Shown: positions 10,290 through 59,751 of the stretch, piece by piece
Layout: every line of letters begins with the position of its first letter
Numbering within the stretch: the stretch's first letter is position 1
Translations under genes and position numbers: made by a program
The notes under the pieces: generated by a model
Databases searched by the model: none
What the model was told of the DNA's origin: nothing
What the model saw: the letters and a program-made list of their open reading frames with translations, nothing else
NCBI GenBank assembly: GCA_041581135.1
Contig: JBFGCM010000001.1
Coordinates: forward strand, 32,389-96,388
Source: Acidimicrobiia bacterium
Lineage (GTDB): Bacteria; Actinomycetota; Acidimicrobiia; Spongiisociales; UBA5794
Direction of reading: 5' to 3'
DNA: 64,000 nucleotides

Positions 10290-10718
10290 ATGCGGGTGCT
10301 CAGCGCCCTTCTCCGGCCGCGGCGGATCGCTCATGCCCATTGCGACCTGTTCTGTGGCGTCTATGACCCGGCCCAGGCGATGATCGAGGCCAAGTCCGTC
10401 CTCAACTGCTGCACCAAGTACGAGGCGTCCGACGACCCGGTGTTCCGGGATCGGTGCGTCGCCATCAAGGAAGAACGTGCCGAGCTCGTGAAGCATCACT
10501 TGTCCGTGTTGTGGACCGACTTCTTCAAGCCACACCACACCGAACCCTTCCCCAATCTGCACGACCTGTTCTGGCGTGCCATCAAGCAGGCCTCCGACGC
10601 CAAGAAGTCCATGGATCCTGCGGTGTCCCAGAAGCTCATCGACCTCGTCCAGGAGGTGTCGGATGTGTTCTGGCAGACCGACGAGTCCAAGAGCGCCGGC
10701 GTGTATCCGCCGGGCTGA
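10290..10718 (+). CDS. sodN: Nickel superoxide dismutase precursor
   Basis: The leader MRVLSALLRPRRIAHA is followed by the Ni-hook HCDLFCGVYDPAQA. ...RAELVKHHLSVLWTDFFKP matches the NiSOD four-helix core. GGGAGG precedes the ATG. Confidence 0.9.
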   Translation: MRVLSALLRPRRIAHAHCDLFCGVYDPAQAMIEAKSVLNCCTKYEASDDPVFRDRCVAIKEERAELVKHHLSVLWTDFFKPHHTEPFPNLHDLFWRAIKQASDAKKSMDPAVSQKLIDLVQEVSDVFWQTDESKSAGVYPPG

Positions 10719-10764
10719 CCGGCGGTCAGCGTTCGCGGAGGGGCCTGCGGGCCCCTCCGGAGCG

Positions 10765-12345
10765 TCAGGAGTCGTCCGCCGCCTGCGTGGAGGACGCGAC
10801 CCGGACGGTGAGGGAATGCAGGCCGGCACCGCCGGCGAAGACGACGACCCCGAACGCAGCGGTGCCGGCGACGATCGCAGCGACGCTGCCGACGAACGAG
10901 TCCGCCGCCACGACAGACCCCGTGATGCCGCCGGCCAGCCACGCCGCCACGCCGGCCACCGCCGCCAGGGGCAGGGCACGGGCCGTGGTGTTCACCACCG
11001 GCCACAGGAACTCCGTACCGGTCCGGCGGTACCAGATCACGGCAAGTGTTGCCGTGTAGGCGAGCAGGGCCAGCGTGCTGGCGAAGGCGACGCCCCGGAT
11101 GCCGAACCCCGCTTGGAGCGCCCAGTACAACGGAAAGGCCAGCACGGTGACCGCCGTTCCGGCTACCACCGGCACCCACATCTCGCGGCGGGCGTAGAAG
11201 CCCCTCGTGATGAGCTGGAGCGCCCCCCAGACGGGTACCGCCAGCGCGTAGAAGAAGAGGGCTGCCGCGGCGGCCTCTGAGTGCTCCGGCAGGAAGTTGC
11301 CGCGCTCGAACAAGGCCCGGATGGATGGCAGCGTGAGGGCGGCGAGGAGCGCTGAAGCGGCGATGCTCAGAGCGATCACGTAGCGGAGCGCCCGCGCCAC
11401 GGTGGCCGCCATCTCCCGGTGCTTGTCCTCGGCGAACAGCCTCGCCAGGAACGGGTAGGCGGCGACCCCGGCCGCCTGCGCGATGACGCCCACCGGAACG
11501 AGCATGGTGCGCCGCGCAACCTGGAGCTGGACGACGGCGCCATCGGACACCAGGTTGCCGAAGGACTTCATGAACTGCTCGTCGAGCACCACGATCGACT
11601 GGCCCACCATCAGTGGTATCGCCAGCAACAGGTACTCGGAGATCACCGGGTGAGCCCAGGGCAACGACCACCGCACTCGCAGGCCGACGCGATGCGCCCC
11701 CCACACCTGGACCAGGAAGTTGCCGACGACGGCGCCACCCAGAACACCCCAGGCGAACCCCTCCGGTGTCGGCGCCTCTCTTCCCAGGTTGAACGCGATG
11801 CCGCCGGCGATGATGCCGACGTTGTAGATGATCGGCGCCAGCGTCGGCACCACGAACTGGCCCTTGGCGTACTGGACGGCCATGAGCAGCGAGCCGAGGA
11901 TGAAGAAGAACTGGGCCGGCAGCACGATCCTGGTCAGTCGCGCTGCCTCGGCGAGCTGATCACCTTCGAAGCGTGGGTACACCAGGTCGAGCACCGGCTC
12001 TGCCACCGCCATGGCGAGCGCAACGAGGACCACCATGGCGAGCCCGACGGGACGGGCGATGGCGGTGAATGCGTCCCATCCGCCTTCCTCGTCGTCTGCG
12101 GCCAGGTAGCGGCTGAGGATGGGGATGAAGGTGATGGCCATGAACCCGCCGGCGAGGAGGTAGTTGATCCAGTCGGCGATGGTGAACGCCGCCTGGTACA
12201 CGTCGCCGGTGGCGGTACCACCGAGGATGGCGGCAGCCACCTGTTCGCGGATGAGACCGATGATCCGTGACAGCAGGACGCCGCCGGCCACGACGGCGGC
12301 GGCCGTTCCCATGCGGCGGCGGTGGAGTCCGGGGGCGGCGGTCAC
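10765..12345 (-). CDS. murJ: Lipid II flippase MurJ (MviN family)
   Basis: Polytopic membrane protein with the MurJ N-terminal pattern LLSRIIGLIREQVAAAILG...DVYQAAFTI. The true start may be the Met at 12312. Confidence 0.85.
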   Translation of the reverse strand: MTAAPGLHRRRMGTAAAVVAGGVLLSRIIGLIREQVAAAILGGTATGDVYQAAFTIADWINYLLAGGFMAITFIPILSRYLAADDEEGGWDAFTAIARPVGLAMVVLVALAMAVAEPVLDLVYPRFEGDQLAEAARLTRIVLPAQFFFILGSLLMAVQYAKGQFVVPTLAPIIYNVGIIAGGIAFNLGREAPTPEGFAWGVLGGAVVGNFLVQVWGAHRVGLRVRWSLPWAHPVISEYLLLAIPLMVGQSIVVLDEQFMKSFGNLVSDGAVVQLQVARRTMLVPVGVIAQAAGVAAYPFLARLFAEDKHREMAATVARALRYVIALSIAASALLAALTLPSIRALFERGNFLPEHSEAAAAALFFYALAVPVWGALQLITRGFYARREMWVPVVAGTAVTVLAFPLYWALQAGFGIRGVAFASTLALLAYTATLAVIWYRRTGTEFLWPVVNTTARALPLAAVAGVAAWLAGGITGSVVAADSFVGSVAAIVAGTAAFGVVVFAGGAGLHSLTVRVASSTQAADDS

Positions 12346-46668: not shown

Positions 46669-48735
<2,067 letters not shown>

Positions 48736-49143
48736 CTAGCCCGCTTCGAAGCTCCAGCGATACTCGCCCTCCCCGCTCGCTCCCTTCCACCGCACGGCGA
48801 CCGTGTGGATGCCGGCATTCCATGCACTGCGGCGCCGGTCCGCGGCGGGTGCCCACTCGTAGCCGTCCGGACCGACCGCGATCTCTGCGTCCGGTACCTG
48901 CAATTGGTCGACGAACAGCTCGATGGTGTACCCGGGGTCGATTGCGACGACGACGGGGCTGGTGTCGCCCACCGGCACCGTGCCCAGTGGAGCGACGCGA
49001 TCGATGAAGTCGGGCAGCGGCGCTTCCCGCGACGGCGGCAGGAACACCACGAAGCCGACGATGATCGCAGCGAAGAGCACCCCGGCGATGGCGAGGGCGA
49101 TGCGGAACCGGCTCTGTTGCCTGGGCGTCAGCGGGATCGACAC
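48736..49143 (-). CDS. Membrane-anchored hypothetical protein
   Basis: Has one TM segment (FRIALAIAGVLFAAIIVGFVVFL) followed by a ~90-aa soluble domain. Its stop abuts the ligA stop. Confidence 0.5.
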   Translation of the reverse strand: MSIPLTPRQQSRFRIALAIAGVLFAAIIVGFVVFLPPSREAPLPDFIDRVAPLGTVPVGDTSPVVVAIDPGYTIELFVDQLQVPDAEIAVGPDGYEWAPAADRRRSAWNAGIHTVAVRWKGASGEGEYRWSFEAG

Positions 49144-49207
49144 GAAGAGAGATGCTACGGCGGTGAGGCGGCGTCATGGTTCCGGAGAAACCAGTTACCG
49201 TTGCGGT

Positions 49208-50350
49208 ATGCGCTTGAACCCGATCTTCGCCGAGCTCGGAACGTACCCCATCCAGGAGATCAAGGACCGCGCCTTGGCGATCCTGGCTCGTGGGGAGCGG
49301 CTCATCGACTTCTCCATCGGTGATCCGACCGAGCCGACCCCGGCGTTCATCGCTAAGGCGCTCAGAGATGCGGTGCCCGCCGTCTCGCAGTATCCGAGTG
49401 CGTCAGGCACGCCCGAGCAGCGGCAGGCCATCGCCGACTACGTGGCCAGACGCTTCGGCGTCACGGTGGATCCCGACGTGCACATCGTGCCGACCTCCGG
49501 CTCCAAGGAGGCGATCTTCTCCACCCCGCTCGCCTTTGTCGATCGAGATGCCGGCGACATCGTCGCCTACGGGACCCCGGGGTATCCGGTGTACGAGCGA
49601 GGCGCCTTGTTCGCCGGAGCCCGAATTCACCCGATCGTGCTCGAAGGCGATTTCGTGCTTCGCGCCGGCGACGTTCCGGACGACGTCTGGGCGCAGGCCG
49701 CGATGCTGTGGCTGTGCACGCCCCACAACCCTGCCGGAGCCGTGACCTCGGCGGCCGAACTGTCCGACCTGCTCGAGGCGGCGCGTGCCTCGGACACGCT
49801 GCTGCTCTCCGACGAGTGCTACACCGACGTGTACGAGGGGGCGCCTCCGGCCTCGGCGCTCCAAGTGGCCGGGGAGGGGGCGAGGGGCGTGCTCGTCTAT
49901 CTCAGCTGTTCCAAGCGATCCGGGATGACCGGCTACCGCTCGGGAGCGATCATCGGCGATGCCGAGGCCATCGACGCCCTCAAGCGGTTGCGCACCACGA
50001 CCGGCACGGCACCCACTGTGTTCGTGTCGGCGGCAGCCGCCACGGCATGGAGCGACGACGATCACGCCGCCGAGCGCCGTGAGATCTTCGCCAGGAAACG
50101 AGCGATTCTCCGCAAAGCGTTCGACGAGGTCGGCTACGAGACCGTTGCCTCCCAGGCCGGCCTCTACCTGTGGCTCCGGGTGGGTGATGACGTGGCGGTC
50201 GCCTCGAGGCTGCTCGACGGCGGTGTCGTGGTCTCGCCGGGCCGGGCGTTCGGCCCAGGTGGTGAGGGGTACATCCGGTTGGCGCTCGTGCCGACCGTCG
50301 AGGAGTGTGAGGCGGCGGTGGAGGTCGTGCAGCAGTGCCTGTCGAACTGA
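49208..50350 (+). CDS. dapC: Class I/II aminotransferase, succinyldiaminopimelate transaminase-like
   Basis: Trimmed to MRLNPIFAELGTYPIQEI. The PLP Lys context is SCSKRSGMTGYRSG. The gene lies directly upstream of dapD and dapE. Confidence 0.75.
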   Translation: MRLNPIFAELGTYPIQEIKDRALAILARGERLIDFSIGDPTEPTPAFIAKALRDAVPAVSQYPSASGTPEQRQAIADYVARRFGVTVDPDVHIVPTSGSKEAIFSTPLAFVDRDAGDIVAYGTPGYPVYERGALFAGARIHPIVLEGDFVLRAGDVPDDVWAQAAMLWLCTPHNPAGAVTSAAELSDLLEAARASDTLLLSDECYTDVYEGAPPASALQVAGEGARGVLVYLSCSKRSGMTGYRSGAIIGDAEAIDALKRLRTTTGTAPTVFVSAAAATAWSDDDHAAERREIFARKRAILRKAFDEVGYETVASQAGLYLWLRVGDDVAVASRLLDGGVVVSPGRAFGPGGEGYIRLALVPTVEECEAAVEVVQQCLSN

Positions 50351-51153
50351 CGGACCAAGCGTTGATAGAGGCGGCGTACGTCGATCTGGAGCGACTCGGT
50401 GATGCCGCAGAAGCCGTCCATCGCACGATCGCTGCGCTCGACGCCGGCGAGGTTCGCGTAGCGGAGAAGTCCGGCGGCGAATGGCATGTCAACGAGTGGG
50501 TCAAGGAGGCGATCCTGCTCTACTTCCGGCTTGCCGAGCTGGGGGTCAGCGAGGCCGGACCGTTCGAGTACCACGACAAGATCCCCACCAAGCGCGGGCT
50601 CGCCGACGCCGGCATCCGGGTGGTTCCCCCGGGAACGGTCCGGTACGGCGCCTACTGCGAACCAGGCGTGGTGGTGATGCCCGGCTACGTGAACATCGGG
50701 GCGTACGTGGGCAGCGGCACGATGGTGGACACGTGGGCCACGGTCGGCTCCTGTGCCCAGATCGGCCGTGACGTGCACCTCTCCGGCGGCGTGGGTATCG
50801 GTGGTGTGCTGGAGCCGCCATCGGCCCGGCCGGTGATCATCGAAGACGGCGCCTTCATCGGCAGTCGTTCCATCATCGTCGAGGGGGCGCTGATCGAGTC
50901 CGGCGCCGTGATCGGGGCCAACACCAGCATCACGTCGTCGACGCCCATCATCGACGTCACCGGTGAGGAACCCGTCGAGACGAGGGGTCGGGTACCGGCC
51001 AACTCGGTGGTCGTGCCCGGCACGCGTCCCAAGGACTTCGCGGCCGGTAGCTACCACCTGCAGTGTGCGCTCATCATCGGCAAGCGCAAGGAATCGACGG
51101 ACCGCAAGACCTCCCTCAACGACGCGTTGCGCGTGTTCGAGGTGCAGGTGTGA
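50335..51153 (+). CDS. dapD: 2,3,4,5-tetrahydropyridine-2,6-dicarboxylate N-succinyltransferase
   Basis: EWHVNEWVKEAILLYFR is followed by hexapeptide repeats. The gene overlaps dapC by 16 nt. Confidence 0.88.
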   Translation: MPVELTDQALIEAAYVDLERLGDAAEAVHRTIAALDAGEVRVAEKSGGEWHVNEWVKEAILLYFRLAELGVSEAGPFEYHDKIPTKRGLADAGIRVVPPGTVRYGAYCEPGVVVMPGYVNIGAYVGSGTMVDTWATVGSCAQIGRDVHLSGGVGIGGVLEPPSARPVIIEDGAFIGSRSIIVEGALIESGAVIGANTSITSSTPIIDVTGEEPVETRGRVPANSVVVPGTRPKDFAAGSYHLQCALIIGKRKESTDRKTSLNDALRVFEVQV

Positions 51154-52202
51154 CGCTGGAGGAGACGCTCGTCTCATTGGTCGACATCCCTTCCGTCACG
51201 GGCGCAGAGGGCAGACTGTGCACGGCCTTGGCGCAGAGGTTGCTGCCGGTCTACGACATGGATGGGGTCTCCCGGATCGGCAACAGCCTCGTCGTCGGCC
51301 GCCGCACCGGACGGCCGATCCTCGCTCTGGTGGGCCACATCGACACGGTCCCCGAGCAGGGCAATGGCACCGCCAGGATCGCCGACGGCATGGTCTACGG
51401 CCTCGGCACCTCCGACATGAAAGGCGGCGTCGCCGTCATGGTCCACCTGCTCGAAGACGAGCTGGTCCGTGCGAGCGACTTCGACGTCGTGGGGGTCTTC
51501 TACGACAAGGAGGAGGGCTCGATGGCCGACAACGGGCTCGAGCCGGTGCTCGACGCCGTGCCCTGGCTGGAGGAAGCCGAGTTCGCCGTGGTGTTGGAGC
51601 CGACCGACTTGGAGCTCCAGTTGGGCTGCAACGGCAGCTTGAACGCACGGATCACCTTCATGGGCTCGTCTGCGCACAGCGCTCGGCCCTGGCTGGGGAG
51701 TAACGCGATCACCCGAGCCGGGGCCTGGCTCGATGAGATGCACCGGCGTGAGCCGCAACCGGTCACGGTGGCCGGCCTGGAGTTCCTCGAAGTGTTCTCG
51801 GTGACCAAGGCCGGCGGGGGCATCGCCCACAACGTCATCCCGCCACGATTCGATCTCAACCTGAACTACCGGTTCCCTCCGATCTACTCGATGGAGGACG
51901 CGGCCCGTCGCGTCGCCGAGGTGGCCGCTGCCGCCGACGAGGTGGAGGTCATCGACGCCGCTCCCTCCGGCGAGATCGCCGAAGACAACCCACACCTGCA
52001 GCGGCTGGCCACCGTCAGCGGGGCAGAACGCACCGCCAAACAGGCGTGGACCGACGTTGCTCGCCTCACCAGCCGGGGCATCGCCGCCGTCAACTACGGA
52101 CCGGGTCTCGTCACACAGGCGCACCAGGTGGGCGAGCACGTGCCCATCGCCAACCTCGAAGCGTGCTACACCACACTCCGTCGGTTCCTCACCGAACCCT
52201 GA
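51150..52202 (+). CDS. dapE: Succinyl-diaminopimelate desuccinylase (M20 peptidase)
   Basis: GTG at 51150 overlaps the dapD stop. Contains LVGHIDTVP and GTSDMKGG. Confidence 0.85.
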   Translation: MTLEETLVSLVDIPSVTGAEGRLCTALAQRLLPVYDMDGVSRIGNSLVVGRRTGRPILALVGHIDTVPEQGNGTARIADGMVYGLGTSDMKGGVAVMVHLLEDELVRASDFDVVGVFYDKEEGSMADNGLEPVLDAVPWLEEAEFAVVLEPTDLELQLGCNGSLNARITFMGSSAHSARPWLGSNAITRAGAWLDEMHRREPQPVTVAGLEFLEVFSVTKAGGGIAHNVIPPRFDLNLNYRFPPIYSMEDAARRVAEVAAAADEVEVIDAAPSGEIAEDNPHLQRLATVSGAERTAKQAWTDVARLTSRGIAAVNYGPGLVTQAHQVGEHVPIANLEACYTTLRRFLTEP

Positions 52203-52262
52203 CCCGCGCGGCAGCTCGGTAATGTCAATGCGAGATCACCGTCGACCACTTGGAGGGACACG

Positions 52263-52727
52263 ATGGCGGCGCCGAGGCTCCGGATGCGGCACGCCGGCCA
52301 GGAAGCAATCGTGACCGGGGACGACGTCGCCGTCATCGGCTCAGGTGACGGCGCCACCCTTACGGTCCGCCGACCCGGTATCTCGCGCCGTCACGCCGAG
52401 GTCCGGTACACCGATACCCATTGGGTGGTGCGAGACACCGAGAGCCTCAACGGCACCTTTACCGATGGGCGGCGGGTCGACGTCATGCAGATCGACAAGG
52501 CCGTGACGCTCCGGCTCGGTCATCCCGACGAGGGCGAGGTGGTGGAGCTCGAGCCCCTCGGGGACGGCGCCCCTCCCGAGGCCACGCAACTGATCGACAC
52601 GCCGGGCGCGGCTCCCTCCGCACCCGGTCGTGACACCATGGAACGCGTCATCTTGGCGTTGTGGGCGATCGCCGGCGCCATCGTGTTCCTCGGCGCCGCC
52701 ATCATCATCGCCGCCGTCATCTCCTGA
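52263..52727 (+). CDS. FHA domain protein with C-terminal TM anchor
   Basis: The FHA core is ISRRHAEVRYTDTHWVVRDTESLNGTFTDGRRV. The C-terminal TM segment is VILALWAIAGAIVFLGAAIIIAAVI. Confidence 0.8.
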   Translation: MAAPRLRMRHAGQEAIVTGDDVAVIGSGDGATLTVRRPGISRRHAEVRYTDTHWVVRDTESLNGTFTDGRRVDVMQIDKAVTLRLGHPDEGEVVELEPLGDGAPPEATQLIDTPGAAPSAPGRDTMERVILALWAIAGAIVFLGAAIIIAAVIS

Positions 52728-52825
52728 GCGACGGTGACCCGGCAGGGCATGGGTGACGTGCCTCGCGACGACATGCCATCGGCCCGATGTGAGTAGGTTT
52801 GTCGGGCGACGGTTGGAGGGTGTCC

Positions 52826-53767
52826 ATGGTGCAGGAACTGGTGCTGGAATGTTCCGGGCTGTCAAAGTCGTACGGGTCCCGCCTGGCCGTCGACGACGTC
52901 GGGTTCTCGATCGCATCCGGTGAGACGTATGGACTGCTCGGACCCAACGGAGCGGGCAAGACCACCAGCATCTCCATGATCGCCGGCTTGCTGGAACGCG
53001 ACGCCGGCACCGTCGTCGTGGCCGGACAGACGCTGGACACCTCGTCCACGGACGCGAAGAAGGCCATCGGCCTCGTACCCCAGGACATCGCCCTGTATCC
53101 GGATCTGACCGCTCGGGAGAATCTGGTCTTCTTCGCCAAGCTCTACGGCCTCGAAGGCAATCTGAAACAACGCGTCGACGAGGTGCTCGCGATCGTGGAG
53201 CTTGCCGAGCGCGCCGGCGACCGGGTCGACGAGTTCTCCGGGGGCATGAAGCGACGCCTCAACATCGGTATCGGATTGCTCCACCATCCCCGGCTCCTCA
53301 TCCTCGACGAGCCGACCGTCGGCGTCGATCCGCAGAGCCGCAACGCCATCCTCGGCAGCGTCGAACAGCTGGGGGAGGAAGGGATGGCAGTGCTGTACAC
53401 GACGCACTACATGGAAGAGGCCGAACGGTTGTGCGACCGGGTGGGGATCATCGACGAGGGCAGGATCATCGCCGAGGGCACCCGCCGCGAGCTGGTGGCG
53501 ATCGTCGGCCAGCGAGATCGGATCCACTTGACCGCAACCGGCGATCTGGAGGCTGTGGCGGCCGCGTTGCGGGGCCATGATGCGGTCGATGATGCGTCCG
53601 GCGCCGATGGCGCCCTGGAGTTGGTGGTGCGCGAAGCATCTGCGGTGCTCCCTGGCCTACTGGCTGCAGCGACCACCGCCGGTGCCACCATCACCGGCGT
53701 GGAGGTGGTCGAGCCCGACCTGGAGGCGGTGTTCCTGCACCTCACCGGCAAGGCACTGCGGGAGTAG
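52826..53767 (+). CDS. ABC transporter ATP-binding protein
   Basis: The ATG is preceded by GGAGGG. Walker A is GPNGAGKTT, the signature is FSGGMKRR and Walker B is LLILDEP. Confidence 0.9.
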   Translation: MVQELVLECSGLSKSYGSRLAVDDVGFSIASGETYGLLGPNGAGKTTSISMIAGLLERDAGTVVVAGQTLDTSSTDAKKAIGLVPQDIALYPDLTARENLVFFAKLYGLEGNLKQRVDEVLAIVELAERAGDRVDEFSGGMKRRLNIGIGLLHHPRLLILDEPTVGVDPQSRNAILGSVEQLGEEGMAVLYTTHYMEEAERLCDRVGIIDEGRIIAEGTRRELVAIVGQRDRIHLTATGDLEAVAAALRGHDAVDDASGADGALELVVREASAVLPGLLAAATTAGATITGVEVVEPDLEAVFLHLTGKALRE

Positions 53768-53769
53768 CC

Positions 53770-54945
53770 GTGCTGCGACCGGCGATGCTCATCGCGGCGA
53801 AAGACCTCAAGCAACGCCTGCGCGACCGCTCCGCGATCGTCTTGGCCGTCGTGGTGCCGTTGGGACTGGCATTCATCCTCAGTGCCACCATCGGTGGTGC
53901 CGGAGAGGGTGACTTCACGATCCCGGTCGCCATCGCCGATCTCGATGGGGGTGACGTCGCCCTCGGTTTCCGTGGGTTGCTGGACGACCTCGAAGCCCAA
54001 GGATTGCTCGAGGTGCAGGAGGCCCCCGACGCCGCCGCCGTGGCGGCGCTCGCCGAGGACGGTGAGGTCTCTGCCGGGTACGTGCTCCCGGCGGGATTCT
54101 CGGTGGCGGCGACCGGATCGGAGCCGACTGCCATCGAGATCAGCGTCAACCCGGAGAGCGACATCGGCGCCGACGTGGCGACGGCGATCGCCCAGGGATT
54201 CGCCAGCGAGGTCACTGCCGTGCAGGTGACGATCTCGGCGGCCCTCGCATCGGGCGCCTCGGGCGACATCGGCGCCCTGATCGACTCCGCCGTGGCGCAG
54301 GGCAGTCCGATCCAGCTCCAAGCCACGGAGCTCGAGGGGGAGGGGGGCTTCGATTTCGCCACCTTCTATGCCATCGGCATCGCCGTATTCTTCGTGTACT
54401 TCACCGTGCAGTTCGGTGTGCTGGGCCTCATCGAGGAGCGGGAGAAGGGCACCATGACCCGACTCATCGCCGCCCCCATCCCGCCGACGATGATCCTGCT
54501 CGGGAAGCTCCTCAGCTCATTCGCCGTCGGTGTCGGGTCGATGATCGTGCTGTGGCTGGCCACCGGGTTCGCCATGGGAGCAGAGTGGGGTGATCCGCTG
54601 GGCGTGGTGGTGATGATCGTCGCTGCGGTGCTCTCGGCGATGGGCATCACCGCGCTGGTGGCCACCTTCGCCCACACCGCAGAGCAAGCCGGCGGCTGGA
54701 GCTCGATCGTTGTCGTGGTCTTGGGTCTCATGGGCGGCACCTTCTTCCCGATCTCCCAGGCGTCGAGTGTCTTGGCGAACATCAGCTTTCTCACGCCGCA
54801 CCGGTGGCTCATGGAGGGGTTCTTGGACCTCTCCGCAGGCGACGGGCTCGTCGATGTCCTGCCGTCAGTCGGCTTCGTAGTGGCCTTCGGCGTGGTCACC
54901 GGCCTCATCGGCCTGCTCCGTGCGCGGCACTTGGTGACGGCGTGA
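53770..54945 (+). CDS. ABC-2 type transporter permease
   Basis: Has an N-terminal TM segment, a large extracytoplasmic loop and a C-terminal multi-TM bundle. Confidence 0.8.
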   Translation: MLRPAMLIAAKDLKQRLRDRSAIVLAVVVPLGLAFILSATIGGAGEGDFTIPVAIADLDGGDVALGFRGLLDDLEAQGLLEVQEAPDAAAVAALAEDGEVSAGYVLPAGFSVAATGSEPTAIEISVNPESDIGADVATAIAQGFASEVTAVQVTISAALASGASGDIGALIDSAVAQGSPIQLQATELEGEGGFDFATFYAIGIAVFFVYFTVQFGVLGLIEEREKGTMTRLIAAPIPPTMILLGKLLSSFAVGVGSMIVLWLATGFAMGAEWGDPLGVVVMIVAAVLSAMGITALVATFAHTAEQAGGWSSIVVVVLGLMGGTFFPISQASSVLANISFLTPHRWLMEGFLDLSAGDGLVDVLPSVGFVVAFGVVTGLIGLLRARHLVTA

Positions 54946-56090
54946 AGAAGGTTCTGGCGATCGCCGGCACGAGTGTGCGCCGCTTGTTCCGCGATCGGCT
55001 GAACATCTTCTTCGTGCTCATCCTGCCGATCCTCCTCATCACTGTCATCGGCATCGTGTTCGGTGGGGGATTCACCCCCCGCATCGGTGTGATCTCGACC
55101 GACACCGGCGATCTCGGTGCGGAGCTGGTCGGCCGCCTCGAGGCGCTCGACTCGATCGCCCTTCTGCCATTCGACGACGTGGAGCAGATGCACAAGGAGA
55201 TCGACCGCGCCAACCTGGAGGCGGGACTCGTCATCCCCGCCGGCTACGACGAGACGCTGCGGTCCGGAGGTACCGTGACCCTGGACTACGCGGCGTTGCC
55301 CCGAGGCGGTGGCTTCGAGGTGCAGAGCCTCGTCTCCGCCGAGATCTCACAGCAAGCCGCCTCCGTGCGCGCTGCACAGTTCGTGTCCGGCGTCACAGAG
55401 GTCGGGTTCGACGACGCACTGGATGTGGCCGAGAACGTCGAGGTCGGCGGCGTCACCGTCACCATCACGGGCGATCAGCGGCCGTCAACCGTCGGCCAGT
55501 TCGACCTTGGGGCGGCCCAGAACCTGGTGCTCTTCATGTTCGTGACGTCGCTTGCCGCATCCGCGGCTTTGATCCAGTCGCGTCGATTCGGGGTGTCCAC
55601 GAGGATGCTGTCCACCCCCACGCCTGCTCGAGTGATCATCGCCGGGGAAACCATGGGCCGGTTCTCGGTGGCACTGGTCCAGGGCCTGTTCATCGCCGTG
55701 GTCGCATCCATCGCCTTCGGCGTCAACTGGGGGTCGTTGGCCGGCGCCGCCGCCGTCGTCGTGGCGTTCGCCCTGGTCGGGACCGGTGCCGCCATGCTCA
55801 TGGGGTCGCTCTTCAGCAATGATCAGCAGGCCGGGGGTTTGGGCGTGTTCATCGGGCTCGGCTTCGGCGCGCTCGGTGGCTGCATGGTGCCGCTGGAGGT
55901 GTTTTCACCCACGATGCGCAACGTGGCACACGTGACGCCACACGCCTGGGCGCTCGACGGCTTCAGCGAACTGATTCGGCGGGATGGCGGGCTCACCGAC
56001 ATCTGGGTGGAGGTGGCGGTGCTCCTGGCTTTCGCCGCGGTGCTGATGGCGCTCGCAACCTGGTCGTTCCGGCGTGCCATCACCGCCTGA
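54942..56090 (+). CDS. ABC-2 type transporter permease (second paralog)
   Basis: GTG at 54942 overlaps the upstream stop. The architecture matches the preceding permease. Confidence 0.8.
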   Translation: MKKVLAIAGTSVRRLFRDRLNIFFVLILPILLITVIGIVFGGGFTPRIGVISTDTGDLGAELVGRLEALDSIALLPFDDVEQMHKEIDRANLEAGLVIPAGYDETLRSGGTVTLDYAALPRGGGFEVQSLVSAEISQQAASVRAAQFVSGVTEVGFDDALDVAENVEVGGVTVTITGDQRPSTVGQFDLGAAQNLVLFMFVTSLAASAALIQSRRFGVSTRMLSTPTPARVIIAGETMGRFSVALVQGLFIAVVASIAFGVNWGSLAGAAAVVVAFALVGTGAAMLMGSLFSNDQQAGGLGVFIGLGFGALGGCMVPLEVFSPTMRNVAHVTPHAWALDGFSELIRRDGGLTDIWVEVAVLLAFAAVLMALATWSFRRAITA

Positions 56091-56096
56091 GGTCCC

Positions 56097-56615
56097 TCAC
56101 ATCACGATGAGCAGGCTGACGATCACGGCGAGCGCGACGACGAAGGCTCCGGCGATCAGGGATGCCACCACTGCAGCGAGATAGACCGGGCTCACCAGCC
56201 GTCCGAGGTCGAACACCCCGAGATCCTGTACTCGCCCGGCCACTCGTCGTACGTCGAGGAGGCCGGTGAGCACGGACCGCAACCGTGACCAGAAGCTGCC
56301 GCGGGTGACGCCCCTCATCGATGACGCTGCCTCGATGGCCTGCCCGACCGCCTCAGTCGAGCCGGCCGCGGCCCGTCGCGGGAGGGTCACCACATCGGAA
56401 AGCAGCCGGGAGAAGTCCCACAGCACCAGGCCGGGCAGTGCCAATACCAGGGCCACGATCAGCCCGATGATCACACGTCCCGCCGTGGGCCGGATGAGAG
56501 TGGCACCGATGAACAGACCGGCCGCCAGCACCACGATGCCGGCGGTACGGAGTGTCGAGGCGACCGACTGCATCGCCGGTGCCAACGACCCGACGAGGCC
56601 GCGGATCCGATCCAC
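56097..56615 (-). CDS. Membrane protein, unknown function
   Basis: 172 aa with three or four hydrophobic segments. Confidence 0.5.
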   Translation of the reverse strand: MDRIRGLVGSLAPAMQSVASTLRTAGIVVLAAGLFIGATLIRPTAGRVIIGLIVALVLALPGLVLWDFSRLLSDVVTLPRRAAAGSTEAVGQAIEAASSMRGVTRGSFWSRLRSVLTGLLDVRRVAGRVQDLGVFDLGRLVSPVYLAAVVASLIAGAFVVALAVIVSLLIVM

Positions 56616-56651
56616 GTCAGGGCGGGCCTGTCGCCTCGTGTCCCCGGTGCC

Positions 56652-57293
56652 TCACGCTTTGAGGGCTCCGACGTAGCGGTCCATCTGGGCGACGTACCGG
56701 TCGGCGTCTTCCTTGGCCTGCGGGTGACGGTTGCCGAGCGCAACCGCGGCGAAGCGGGCGCCGCGGTAGTAGGGCACCAACGCCTCGCGCGGCATCGCCT
56801 TCGGTCCGGGTTCCGCGGGGCCGGTGACGGGTGGCTCTTGTGACGTGGGCGGGAGGTCCATGGCCTGGAGCGCCTCCACCAGCTCTTCTTCAGGGAGCCG
56901 GTCGGCGAAGTCTCGCGATTCCATGCGGAACAGCTCGGAGCCATCGGTGCCGACCACGACCACCGTGGGCTTGGCGATGTTCCGCTGGTCCTTCGGATCG
57001 GCGGCACCGTATGGCTCGATGGCGGCGCTTCGGTCGGGATCGCTCAAGATGGGAAACGGCAGCTCGAGCTTGTCGATCATGGCCGCGTTCTGCTCGGGCG
57101 AGTCGATGACCACGCCGAACACTCGGGCTCCGGCGGCAAGGATGGCGTCGTGGTGGCGGGCCAAGCTGACCAGCTGGCCGTTGCAATAGGCTCACCAGTC
57201 GCCACGGAGGAACACCAAGACCGCCGGCGCATCCAAGTGGTCCGACAGGGTCCAATCCTCGGCGTTCTGATCGGTGATCGTGAAGTCGTGCAT
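56652..57293 (-). CDS. PRX_like2 / AhpC-TSA family peroxiredoxin-like protein with in-frame TGA at the catalytic Cys position (candidate selenoprotein, U-x-x-C)
   Basis: Track ORFs 57192..57488 (last 33 aa, MHDFTITDQNAEDWTLSDHLDAPAVLVFLRGDW) and 56652..57164 are in the same frame. They are separated only by TGA at 57194-57192. Read-through gives FLRGDW-U-AYCNGQL, which matches the family motif F-x-RG-x-W-C-P-x-C-x-x-Q-L. GAGGAG precedes the ATG at 57293. Confidence 0.7.
57159..57179 (-). promoter_or_regulatory. Candidate bacterial SECIS hairpin
   Basis: The mRNA reads UGA-GCCUAUUGCAAC-GGCCAGCU[GGUC]AGCUUGGCC. This forms a 5+3 bp stem with a bulged U and a GGUC tetraloop. The hairpin starts 12 nt after the UGA. 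Confidence 0.55.
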
Positions 57294-57310
57294 GGCTCTC
57301 CTCGTGACTG

Positions 57311-58885
57311 TCAGCCGGCGATCATCTCGGCGGCCTTCTCGGCGATCATGATCGTGGGTGCATTCGTGTTGCCGCGCACCACCGTAGGCATGACGGAGGC
57401 GTCGGCCACGCGCAACCGTTCCACCCCGTGGACTCGCAGCTCGGGACTCACCACAGAATCCGACGGGGACCCCATCCGCGCCGTGCACGAGGGGTGGTAG
57501 AGGAGCTCGGTGGCGGCCCGGATCCAGCCTTCGAGGTCCTCACGGGTCGACACGTCCGGCCCGGGGTGGAGCTCCTCGAGCGCAACCTCGGCGAGGGGGC
57601 GGCTGCGGGCGATCTCCCGTGCCATGTCGATACCCGCCACCATTGCGTCGACGTCGGCACGAGCCGCCATGAACTGACCGAGGATCTGCGGCTTGACCGC
57701 CGGATCCGCAGACCGGAGGCGCAGCGTGCCGCGGTTCACAGGCGCCACGAGCGTCGGGGCGATGGTGAACCCGCGACCGTCGTACGTGGTGAAGCCGTGG
57801 TTCTGGAAGTAGCCGGGAGCGAAATGGAACTGCATGTCGGGTGCATCCAGGCCCGTACTGGTGCGCACGAAGCCGCCGCCCTCCGCCACGTTCGAGGTCA
57901 GCAACCCGCGGCGTGAGGTGAGCCACCGGAGGAGCTCCTTCGTCGTCTCGGCGTCGTCGAGGGTCTGCCGTGCCGAGGTCTTCCACGTCAGCACCGTCAC
58001 CGGATGGTCCATCAGGTGGGACCCCACGTTCGGATTGTCGACGATGGGCTCGATGTCGAAGCCGCGGAGGTGGTCGGCGGGGCCGACGCCCGACAGCATC
58101 AGCAGCTGCGGCGTGTTGATGGCGCCGGCAGCGACGATCACCTCGCCCTCGGCCTGCACCCGGTGCCGTCGGCCGCGGTGGGTGTACTCGACCCCGGTGG
58201 CCCGGCCTCTTGCGATGGTCACGTGCGTCACGTGGGCGCCGCTTCGCACTGTGAGGTTGCGGCGGCGCCGCGCCGGGTCGAGGAAGGCGTTGGCCACCGA
58301 CCAGCGCCGGCCGCGCTGCTGGGTCAGCTGATAGAGACCGACCCCGTCCTGTGTGGCGGCGTTGAAGTCCGGGTTGTAGGGCAGGCCGGCCTCCTTGCCC
58401 GCCTCGACCCATCGTTCCGTCAAGGGATTGAGGCTGCGAGCGTCCGAGACGCGGAGTGGTCCGCCGGTGCCGTGATAGGTGTCGGCGCCCCGCTCGTTGT
58501 CCTCGGACCGCTTGAAGTACGGCAACACGTCGTCTGCCGACCACCCGGCGGCGCCGTGGGACGCCCAGCCGTCGTAGTCGTGCCGGTGGCCCCGGATGTA
58601 GATCATGGCGTTCATCGCCGAGGAGCCGCCGAGCATCTTGCCGCGGGGGATGTACAGCGACCGTCCGTCGAGATGAGGCTCTGCGTCGGTGGTGTACTCC
58701 CAGTCTCGGCTCGTGCGGAACAGCTTGTAGAACGCGGCCGGAATCCGCACGTTGAGATGTTGCGAAGATCCGCCTGCCTCCAGCAGCAGAACTCGTCGAT
58801 CGGGGTCGGCGCTGAGGCGGTTGGCCAGGACACATCCGGCGGATCCGCCGCCGACGATGACGTAGTCGTGAGCCTCGTCCGCCAC
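57311..58885 (-). CDS. GMC family oxidoreductase (choline dehydrogenase-like flavoprotein)
   Basis: GTG at 58885 gives VADEAHDYVIVGGGSAGCVLANRLS. Contains GGSSAMNAMIY and the C-terminal HPSCTARMG...VADASVMP. The upstream ~257 codons of the track ORF overlap the LLM gene and were rejected. Confidence 0.88.
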   Translation of the reverse strand: MADEAHDYVIVGGGSAGCVLANRLSADPDRRVLLLEAGGSSQHLNVRIPAAFYKLFRTSRDWEYTTDAEPHLDGRSLYIPRGKMLGGSSAMNAMIYIRGHRHDYDGWASHGAAGWSADDVLPYFKRSEDNERGADTYHGTGGPLRVSDARSLNPLTERWVEAGKEAGLPYNPDFNAATQDGVGLYQLTQQRGRRWSVANAFLDPARRRRNLTVRSGAHVTHVTIARGRATGVEYTHRGRRHRVQAEGEVIVAAGAINTPQLLMLSGVGPADHLRGFDIEPIVDNPNVGSHLMDHPVTVLTWKTSARQTLDDAETTKELLRWLTSRRGLLTSNVAEGGGFVRTSTGLDAPDMQFHFAPGYFQNHGFTTYDGRGFTIAPTLVAPVNRGTLRLRSADPAVKPQILGQFMAARADVDAMVAGIDMAREIARSRPLAEVALEELHPGPDVSTREDLEGWIRAATELLYHPSCTARMGSPSDSVVSPELRVHGVERLRVADASVMPTVVRGNTNAPTIMIAEKAAEMIAG

Positions 58886-58890
58886 GATGC

Positions 58891-59751
58891 TCAGCCTGCG
58901 TCGAGGGCGGTCACCAGGGGCGCCCACTCGTCCAGGAGGGCGAGCACCGACTCGGGGGCCTCGGAGGGGGCGGCGAGCAGCACGCGAGCGACGCCGGCGG
59001 CGGCGTACGCCTCCAGTTTGGCGGCATCCGGTGGCGCGCCGTAGATGCCGACTTCGATGGTGTCGGGGTCGCGACCCGCCGCCTCGGCTGCGGCGCGCAG
59101 CTGGCCCAGCTTCTCGGTGATCGCCGAACGTCCCAGGATCGGCATCCAGCCGTCGCAAAACTCGGCGATGGCAGCGAACGTCTTGGGGCCGGCCGAGCCG
59201 CCCATGATGATCGGAGGGTGCGGCTTCTGGAGCGGTTTGGGCCAGGCCCAGCTCGGCTCGAGGGACACGTGGGACCCCTGGAAGGACGCCTCCTCTTGGG
59301 TCCACAACGCCTTCATCATGAGGACCTTCTCCCGGAGGATCGCCCGCCGCTTCGTGTACGCGACGCCGTGGTGGGCCATCTCCTCCTTGTTCCACCCGTA
59401 ACCGACCCCGAACATCGCCCGCCCTCCGGACATGACGTCGAGCGAGGCGATCTGCTTGGCCAACCACAGCGGGTCGTGTTGGGCGACCAGGCTGATGGCG
59501 GTGCCCAGCTTGATCCGCTCGGTGACTGCGGCGGCAGCGGTCAGCGCCACGATCTGGTCGTGCGTTCGCCAGTAGTGCTCCGGCAGGGGTGGGGCATCCT
59601 CGCGGCCACCCCATGGCGTGGCGCGGCTGACCGGGATGTGGCTGTGCTCGGGGAACCACAGCGACTCGAAGCCGCGTTCTTCGACGGCACGAGCGAGCGC
59701 CATCGGCTGGATGGTCGTGTCGGTCGGGAAGATGACGACGCCGATGTGCAT
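58891..59751 (-). CDS. LLM-class (luciferase-like) F420-dependent oxidoreductase
   Basis: MHIGVVIFPTD...GFESLWFPEHSHIP...GVGYGWNKEE is the typical LLM F420 subgroup pattern. Confidence 0.8.
   Translation of the reverse strand: MHIGVVIFPTDTTIQPMALARAVEERGFESLWFPEHSHIPVSRATPWGGREDAPPLPEHYWRTHDQIVALTAAAAVTERIKLGTAISLVAQHDPLWLAKQIASLDVMSGGRAMFGVGYGWNKEEMAHHGVAYTKRRAILREKVLMMKALWTQEEASFQGSHVSLEPSWAWPKPLQKPHPPIIMGGSAGPKTFAAIAEFCDGWMPILGRSAITEKLGQLRAAAEAAGRDPDTIEVGIYGAPPDAAKLEAYAAAGVARVLLAAPSEAPESVLALLDEWAPLVTALDAG

Follow-up and report, generated by a model that had tools for sequence, protein, structure and literature searches.

Here we describe a candidate selenoprotein gene on the minus strand of a 64-kb stretch of DNA from an Acidimicrobiia bacterium (contig JBFGCM010000001.1); we refer to this whole stretch as the window. 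The gene occupies positions 56652-57293 and its codon 34 is a UGA. Judging from its sequence and from those of its relatives, it is very probably a genuine case of UGA read as selenocysteine (Sec), in a peroxiredoxin-like (Prx-like) thiol oxidoreductase with a UxxC redox centre. We observed conservation of this codon among relatives, Cys at the same position in other homologues, coding constraint on both sides of the codon, a hairpin accompanied by constraint on synonymous sites, and a peroxiredoxin-type fold.

Starting from the ATG at 57293, the minus-strand frame encodes MHDFTITDQNAEDWTLSDHLDAPAVLVFLRGDW, reaches a TGA at 57194-57192 and continues as AYCNGQLVSLARHHD..., with this codon as the single interruption before the terminal TGA. 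The stop codon of the upstream gene is found at 57313-57311 (minus strand). An earlier note on this DNA had reported the frame, its ATG, the GAGGAG motif, the in-frame TGA and the end at 56652, and re-reading the sequence gave exactly the same positions. It had also predicted that standard annotation would report a truncated open reading frame (ORF) from a TTG. That ORF is indeed present in the mechanical ORF list, and public gene callers truncate the gene likewise. The features of the locus are the following:

56652..57293, minus strand: complete candidate selenoprotein coding sequence, 213 codons including Sec34, with its terminal TGA at 56654-56652; full-length orthologues in 48 loci from metagenome-assembled genomes (MAGs)
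57298..57303, minus strand: Shine-Dalgarno-like GAGGAG, 4 nt 5' of the ATG at 57293-57291, read from the sequence
57192..57194, minus strand: in-frame UGA, proposed Sec34, first residue of W-U-A-Y-C; TGA also in the 48 orthologous loci and in contigs L290 and L291
57183..57185, minus strand: Cys37 (TGC), proposed resolving partner in UxxC; invariant in the family alignment and opposite the peroxidatic Cys of a canonical Prx (2cx3)
56652..57164, minus strand: truncated ORF reported in place of the full gene, 170 residues from a TTG; public callers give fragments of 144-183 residues

With Cys in place of the UGA-encoded residue, the protein matches Pfam AhpC-TSA with 84.2 bits against a cutoff of 26 (residues 2-118), and Redoxin is also matched. 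We then looked at relatives of the gene, taking the DNA of the best 80 loci from species-representative genomes and, from the protein search, the best 120 homologues. Of these 120, 115 are N-terminally truncated proteins of 144-183 residues that align with no more than the C-terminal 64-81% of the query, so their called starts fall after the TGA. The few full-length homologues in the database have Cys at the site (P0023, P0045, P0047 and P0118) or, in P0003, a Trp. The latter residue (RGDWWPYC) lies over a TGA at 684-686 of L291:582-1259 (JGI 3300078750, Ga0633713_0320760). L291 carries the same downstream hairpin, so the Trp of P0003 is an artefact of a gene caller that read TGA as sense on this short contig.

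At the DNA level, 48 of the 80 loci listed have TGA as the homologous codon; these 48 come from different MAG assemblies and have 35-71% protein identity. The earlier note had proposed aligning orthologues to see whether they carry TGC or TGA at this codon. All close orthologous loci (48/48) carry TGA, and TGC or TGT occurs in 28 more distant homologous loci among the 80, from Rubrobacteraceae, Chloroflexota and others. The TGA loci fall into clade A, with 41 of them, and clade B, with seven. Clade A comes mostly from Acidimicrobiia MAGs and includes Euzebyaceae, Egibacteraceae and one MAG labelled Acidobacteria. Clade B (L055, L057, L064 and L066-L069) comes from MAGs labelled Chloroflexi, Dormibacterota, Actinomycetes or just 'bacterium'; its identity is around 40%, and its nearest Cys-type relatives are Rubrobacteraceae. 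Two near-identical TGA-form copies, L024 and L082, belong to the same MAG (SMAG_U8708, DATEDN01) and have the same tRNA-Asp and tRNA-Phe neighbours, and probably reflect strain heterogeneity or a duplicated bin fragment.

The short segment before the TGA evolves as coding sequence. Over the 13 codons upstream of it, the entropies of the three codon positions are 0.62, 0.30 and 1.25, a coding-like pattern, and in nearly all orthologues a start codon precedes the TGA by 32-38 codons, usually soon after an in-frame stop. No frameshifts or further stops were seen in the gene across the orthologues, and purifying selection is strong in both halves. Besides, a second, independently assembled MAG contig (L290; GCA_041611855.1, JBFIMF010000122.1) is 99.5% identical to positions 48732-59552 of the window (10.8 kb) and keeps the same TGA. 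Its annotation cuts the gene in two, with ORFs of 33 residues (2263-2364) and 156 residues (2434-2904). The earlier note had named an assembly error at this codon, or additional disabling mutations in close relatives, as findings that would speak against a selenoprotein; the second assembly and the intact orthologues show neither.

Shortly after the UGA, the mRNA can fold into a hairpin with the features of a bacterial Sec insertion sequence (SECIS):

57159..57179, minus strand: predicted bacterial SECIS hairpin, with its apical loop GGUC at 57171-57168, inside the coding sequence

If the U of UGA is numbered nt 1, its 7 base pairs are G17-C35, C18-G34, C19-G33, A20-U32, G21-C30, C22-G29 and U23-A28, with nt 31 bulged; the window sequence has an extra pair, G16-C36. 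The apical loop, G24-G25-U26-C27, comes 20 nt after the UGA. The nucleotides just after the TGA are more conserved than the remainder of the gene, and this holds for sites that are free to vary at the protein level. The block GGC CAG CTG GTC AGC occupies codons +5 to +9 after the TGA in 42 distinct clade-A Sec-type sequences, and the single synonymous change in it is AGC to AGT, in one sequence. Elsewhere in the same 42 sequences Gly is encoded by all four synonyms, and third-position entropy averages 1.25-1.47 bits. Cys-type homologues with the same peptide (CxYCNGQL) vary at these very sites (GGG, GGC or GGA for Gly; CTG, CTC, CTT or TTG for Leu), and the GGUC hairpin is missing from them. 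Regarding the stem itself, the pair cells are standard in 294/294, the only two substitutions are both G-C to G-U, and the one internal nucleotide that varies freely, as U, C or G, is that predicted to be bulged. The folding energy is between -8.7 and -10.6 kcal/mol in 41 of the 42 sequences.

The published consensus for bacterial SECIS elements asks for an apical loop of 3-9 nt with a G in its first two positions, a spacing of 16-37 nt and a minimum free energy of -7.5 kcal/mol or lower (PMC13188914), and the predicted hairpin agrees with it on every point. The SECIS of Escherichia coli fdhF, read from NC_000913, is likewise inside the coding sequence, directly downstream of the UGA, and the two elements share the apex GC-N-[GGUC]-N'-GC: GCA[GGUC]UGC in fdhF and GCU[GGUC]AGC here (in full, GCAGGUCUGC in fdhF and GCUGGUCAGC here). 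They differ in that the fdhF loop is 2 nt closer to the UGA, beginning at nt 22 instead of nt 24, and in the closing pair, which is A-U in fdhF and U-A here. The bulge of the fdhF element is U17, on the 5' side, whereas the single bulge here is on the 3' side (nt 31). According to these comparisons, the hairpin is predicted to be a SECIS-type element, and its formation would be the reason why five codons of the active-site helix are frozen at their synonymous sites. The hairpin of clade B is a different one, with a CGGGC/GCCUCG stem and an AGUUG loop, about 4 nt closer to the UGA. The same TGA codon with another hairpin suggests independent switching between Cys and Sec, or turnover of the SECIS.

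Turning to the protein, we distinguished two parts:

56889..57293, minus strand: peroxiredoxin/thioredoxin-fold domain, approximately residues 1-135 (Pfam AhpC-TSA at residues 2-118; AlphaFold2 model of P0023)
56655..56846, minus strand: family-specific C-terminal extension made up of a linker and a two-helix hairpin, matching no family in Pfam or NCBIfam

The structure was modelled with AlphaFold2 on the Cys homologue P0023, as a stand-in for the window protein, with a mean predicted local distance difference test score (pLDDT) of 97. This model has a Prx fold, and among solved structures it comes nearest to AhpE, Bcp4 and BcpB, followed closely by ResA (target-normalised TM-scores of 0.85-0.89 for AhpE/Bcp4 and around 0.84 for ResA). 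The first Cys of the motif sits directly before helix 38-49, and the second in the first turn of that helix. In the classic thioredoxin geometry, the first residue of the motif is the exposed nucleophile. When aligned to the solved PrxQ/BCP structure 2cx3, Sec34 stands opposite the Ser of FSPVC, that is, the T/S of the canonical PxxxT/SxxC, the retained Cys37 stands opposite the peroxidatic Cys, and the Pro of PxxxTxxC is replaced by Arg30 in the window protein. Hence, Sec would not replace the peroxidatic Cys of peroxiredoxins, and, as read from the alignment, the predicted site is a thioredoxin-like W-U-x-x-C and not the TxxU of true Sec-peroxiredoxins.

These results bear on two claims of the earlier note. 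The U-x-x-C motif that it had placed in a Prx-like thiol oxidoreductase is borne out by the W-U-A-Y-C reading, the PF00578 match and the Cys homologues. Its description of a TGA lying exactly at the catalytic cysteine of a peroxiredoxin holds in part: homologues do have Cys at the TGA, but in the 2cx3 alignment the position is that of the Ser/Thr, and the equivalent of the peroxidatic Cys is Cys37.

The C-terminal two-helix hairpin has no counterpart in the AhpE, Bcp4, BcpB and ResA structures, nor in Pfam or NCBIfam, and the extension has invariant residues of its own (Y175, R177, G178, F181, A182, A185 and R189). The subfamily has no curated model in either database. Its best NCBIfam match is the SelL-related redox protein NF040769 (45.8 bits, E 5e-12), which it resembles in the Prx-like fold and a CxxC/UxxC-type centre. 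We rejected membership of that family, given that the score is far under its curated cutoff of 120 and the match covers residues 3-89 only.

Among selenoproteins, the Prx-like proteins with UxxC form an established family (PMC1088965, PMC2398784), so the statement of the earlier note that Sec-for-Cys forms of these oxidoreductases are a known class agrees with the literature. The family was described in the prokaryotic, Sargasso Sea and Global Ocean Sampling (GOS) selenoproteome studies (PMC1088965, PMC2398784), is listed as 'Prx-like 1, pfam00578, UxxC' in PMC2398784, and goes under the name 'Prx-like thiol:disulfide oxidoreductase' in both PMC13188914 and PMC5029168. With the Prx-like 1 selenoproteins (published reference sequence WP_010940744.1), the window gene shares the PF00578 domain, UxxC rather than TxxU (as defined in PMC1088965), abundant Cys homologues and an intragenic bacterial SECIS with a G opening a small apical loop; this likeness was judged by domain, motif and description. 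Unlike them, the window subfamily has about 80 extra residues at the C-terminus, which form a linker and a two-helix hairpin and include invariant positions of their own, and it comes from high-GC Acidimicrobiia and Nitriliruptoria-type MAGs. Because of this C-terminal hairpin, the gene arguably represents a distinct subfamily of a known kind of selenoprotein.

Other relatives are further away. PrxU (TxxU, NF040737) has the AhpC/TSA fold and a Sec in the active-site loop/helix, as here, but its Sec replaces the peroxidatic Cys, whereas the window protein keeps Cys37 and has its predicted Sec three residues upstream, at the Thr/Ser. With 22.5 bits for NF040737, whose cutoff is 270, and with Sec off the peroxidatic position, the protein falls outside PrxU. 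In structure, the N-terminal domain is closest to the 1-Cys/atypical peroxiredoxins AhpE and BCP/PrxQ and to ResA (a CxxC thiol-disulfide oxidoreductase), but identity to them is only 20-26%, and they have neither Sec nor the C-terminal helical hairpin.

We propose that UGA codon 34 would be decoded as Sec, with the intragenic mRNA hairpin (nt +17 to +35 in the numbering above) acting as a bacterial SECIS that would recruit SelB-GTP-Sec-tRNA(Sec) to the ribosome. The product would be a 213-residue protein in place of a 33-residue fragment, with a peroxiredoxin/thioredoxin fold and a W-U-x-Y-C redox centre of the thioredoxin type. The attacking nucleophile would probably be Sec34, which takes the N-cap position of the active-site helix; Cys37, in the first turn of that helix, would resolve the oxidised selenium to an intramolecular selenenylsulfide, and a thioredoxin-type reductant would re-reduce it. 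We infer the binding of SelB, the insertion of Sec itself, the choice of attacking residue and the kind of substrate, which may be a peroxide or a disulfide/sulfenate. Gene context gives no clue to the substrate, as the neighbourhood is not conserved: neither the upstream GMC oxidoreductase gene nor the downstream genes are syntenic in the other genomes compared. In the window, the upstream GMC oxidoreductase is followed by genes for a small membrane protein and an ABC-2 transporter. The GMC oxidoreductase gene ends 17 nt before the start of the candidate selenoprotein gene, a pairing that is not kept in other genomes. The mechanical ORF list gives this upstream gene as 782 residues (57311-59659, minus strand), which is over-extended; the sibling contig L290 calls a 524-residue GMC oxidoreductase (PF00732/PF05199).

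One could argue against Sec on several grounds. Compared with dinucleotide shuffles of this GC-rich sequence, the hairpin shows no excess stability (z around 0), and its 42 sequences hold no compensatory double substitutions. The lack of covariation follows from a stem that is nearly invariant, with just the two G-C to G-U changes. Hence, the case for a SECIS rests on a synonymous constraint specific to the TGA-form genes, on a constrained block that coincides exactly with the stem-loop and on the match to the motif, not on covariation. A further objection concerns the Sec machinery. Searches by tblastn with the E. coli SelA, SelB and SelD (from NC_000913) and by Aragorn for tRNA-Sec found no selA, selB, selD or tRNA-Sec in the window, the orthologue loci or 1.03 Mb of flanks; the lone tblastn match was weak and aminotransferase-like. 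The tRNA and Rfam scans of the 64-kb window found no tRNA-Sec either; for the SECIS itself, Rfam has no usable bacterial model. Moreover, none of the 41 clade-A TGA-form assemblies is among the approximately 200 SelA-positive assemblies listed. We give this little weight, since both sets comprise only the best matches, ranked by similarity to unrelated seeds, so that their failure to overlap is not evidence of absence.

The class does have Sec machinery. With the SelA motif GDKLLGGPQ[AG]G expressed as a high-GC DNA pattern, we found at least 120 loci, with three from Acidimicrobiia among those listed, and an alignment built from those three gave at least 80 selA loci in Acidimicrobiales/Acidimicrobiia MAGs. 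Among the 80 selA loci listed, selB is adjacent in 74, selD is nearby in 11 and tRNA-Sec is found in two; the Prx-like gene is not near selA in any of them. Besides, selABCD have been reported in all genomes of Actinomarina, an order of Acidimicrobiia (2026 preprint). Taken together, selA and selB in these MAGs and selABCD in Actinomarina indicate that the class Acidimicrobiia uses Sec.

In the same loci, we considered SelD as a source of a SECIS from the lineage and rejected it, as SelD in Acidimicrobiia loci is a Cys form. It occurs beside selA with two active-site types, CGGCAAKWG (L238, L245, L270, L279-L281 and L284) and GGGCSCK (L229, L243 and L260), both Cys forms, in MAGs labelled Acidimicrobiales, Acidimicrobiaceae or Actinomycetes. 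A Sec-type SelD (G*AAKWG) was seen only in the Coriobacteriia loci L091 and L136. We found no second selenoprotein gene in the window or in the orthologue flanks. The best candidate, a minus-strand gene for a small DUF498/Mth938-like protein at 10554-11933 (plus-strand coordinates) of L009, ends in ...HSTC followed by TGA, with a strong hairpin 11 nt downstream; we judged this TGA an ordinary stop, as the frame downstream looks non-coding. Likewise, in a six-frame scan of the window, just one further TGA was flanked on both sides by same-frame sequence of coding-like composition. It lies at 31942-31940 (minus strand) with a GTG directly after it (TGAGTG), and looks like the junction of two abutting genes and not like recoding.

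Of the alternatives to Sec insertion, the one that survives best, with a small chance of being right, is that the UGA is conserved in lineages without Sec machinery and is either recoded without Sec, through near-cognate read-through by Trp, Cys or Arg, or used for termination and re-initiation, giving two polypeptides. The Sec machinery missing from the window and its flanks, and the TGA-form and SelA-positive assemblies that do not overlap among the matches listed, are what one would expect under this explanation. However, the assembly comparison used the best 80 and best 120 matches, the recoded position is exactly that of a redox Cys in homologues, and the hairpin fits both the SelB-type consensus and the fdhF apex. 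Re-initiation also lacks a conserved start after the TGA, where codon +10 is TTG, CTG or GTG and the starts chosen by public callers are scattered, and a thioredoxin fold split at its active site would not be functional as two polypeptides. Somewhat less probable still is that the TGA-form lineages do without canonical selA, selB, selC and selD and recode the codon by another hairpin-dependent route, such as insertion of Cys or Trp or a non-canonical Sec pathway.

We consider the two remaining explanations negligible. Standard annotation splits or truncates the gene, as it would a pseudogene with a nonsense mutation in a decaying peroxiredoxin-like gene, but this idea is effectively refuted by a TGA shared by 48 orthologues from different species-level genomes and followed by the best conserved nucleotides of the gene, with no relatives showing scattered, differing lesions. 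A sequencing or assembly error over a true TGC, or an alternative code with UGA as sense, would have in its favour only that one public caller (JGI) translated the homologous TGA of P0003 as Trp, the annotation artefact described above; against it, the TGA recurs in the independent assembly and in 48 others, and TGA ends 23 of the 27 confident long ORFs of the window, including the candidate gene and its upstream neighbour. TGA is thus an ordinary terminator here, which excludes a reassigned code and makes codon 34 a site-specific exception. In turn, a TGA kept in orthologues and in a second assembly, with coding-type evolution upstream of it, excludes both pseudogene decay and assembly error. 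Sec insertion at codon 34 is the explanation that we favour.

The kind of selenoprotein described here was already known, and the finding does not change what is known of how Sec insertion or Prx-like UxxC proteins work. What it offers in the first place is a correction of annotation: the locus would encode a 213-residue selenoprotein, and not a 33-residue ORF plus a 150-180-residue 'hypothetical' or 'redoxin' fragment. The error is systematic, with 115 of the 120 best homologues truncated at this codon and one with its TGA mistranslated as Trp. As a result, the active site is missing from the public proteins of a whole subfamily from sediment and soil Acidimicrobiia and related Actinomycetota, and the second clade, from Chloroflexi/Dormibacterota MAGs, is likewise without its active site in public protein sets. 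At the level of the mRNA, the gene would be an instance of dual coding, in which five codons of the active-site helix serve both the protein and the SECIS. Regarding the organisms, the only literature report of selenium use in the class Acidimicrobiia that we found is the 2026 Actinomarina preprint, and the presence of this gene marks the high-GC lineages that carry it as probable selenium users.

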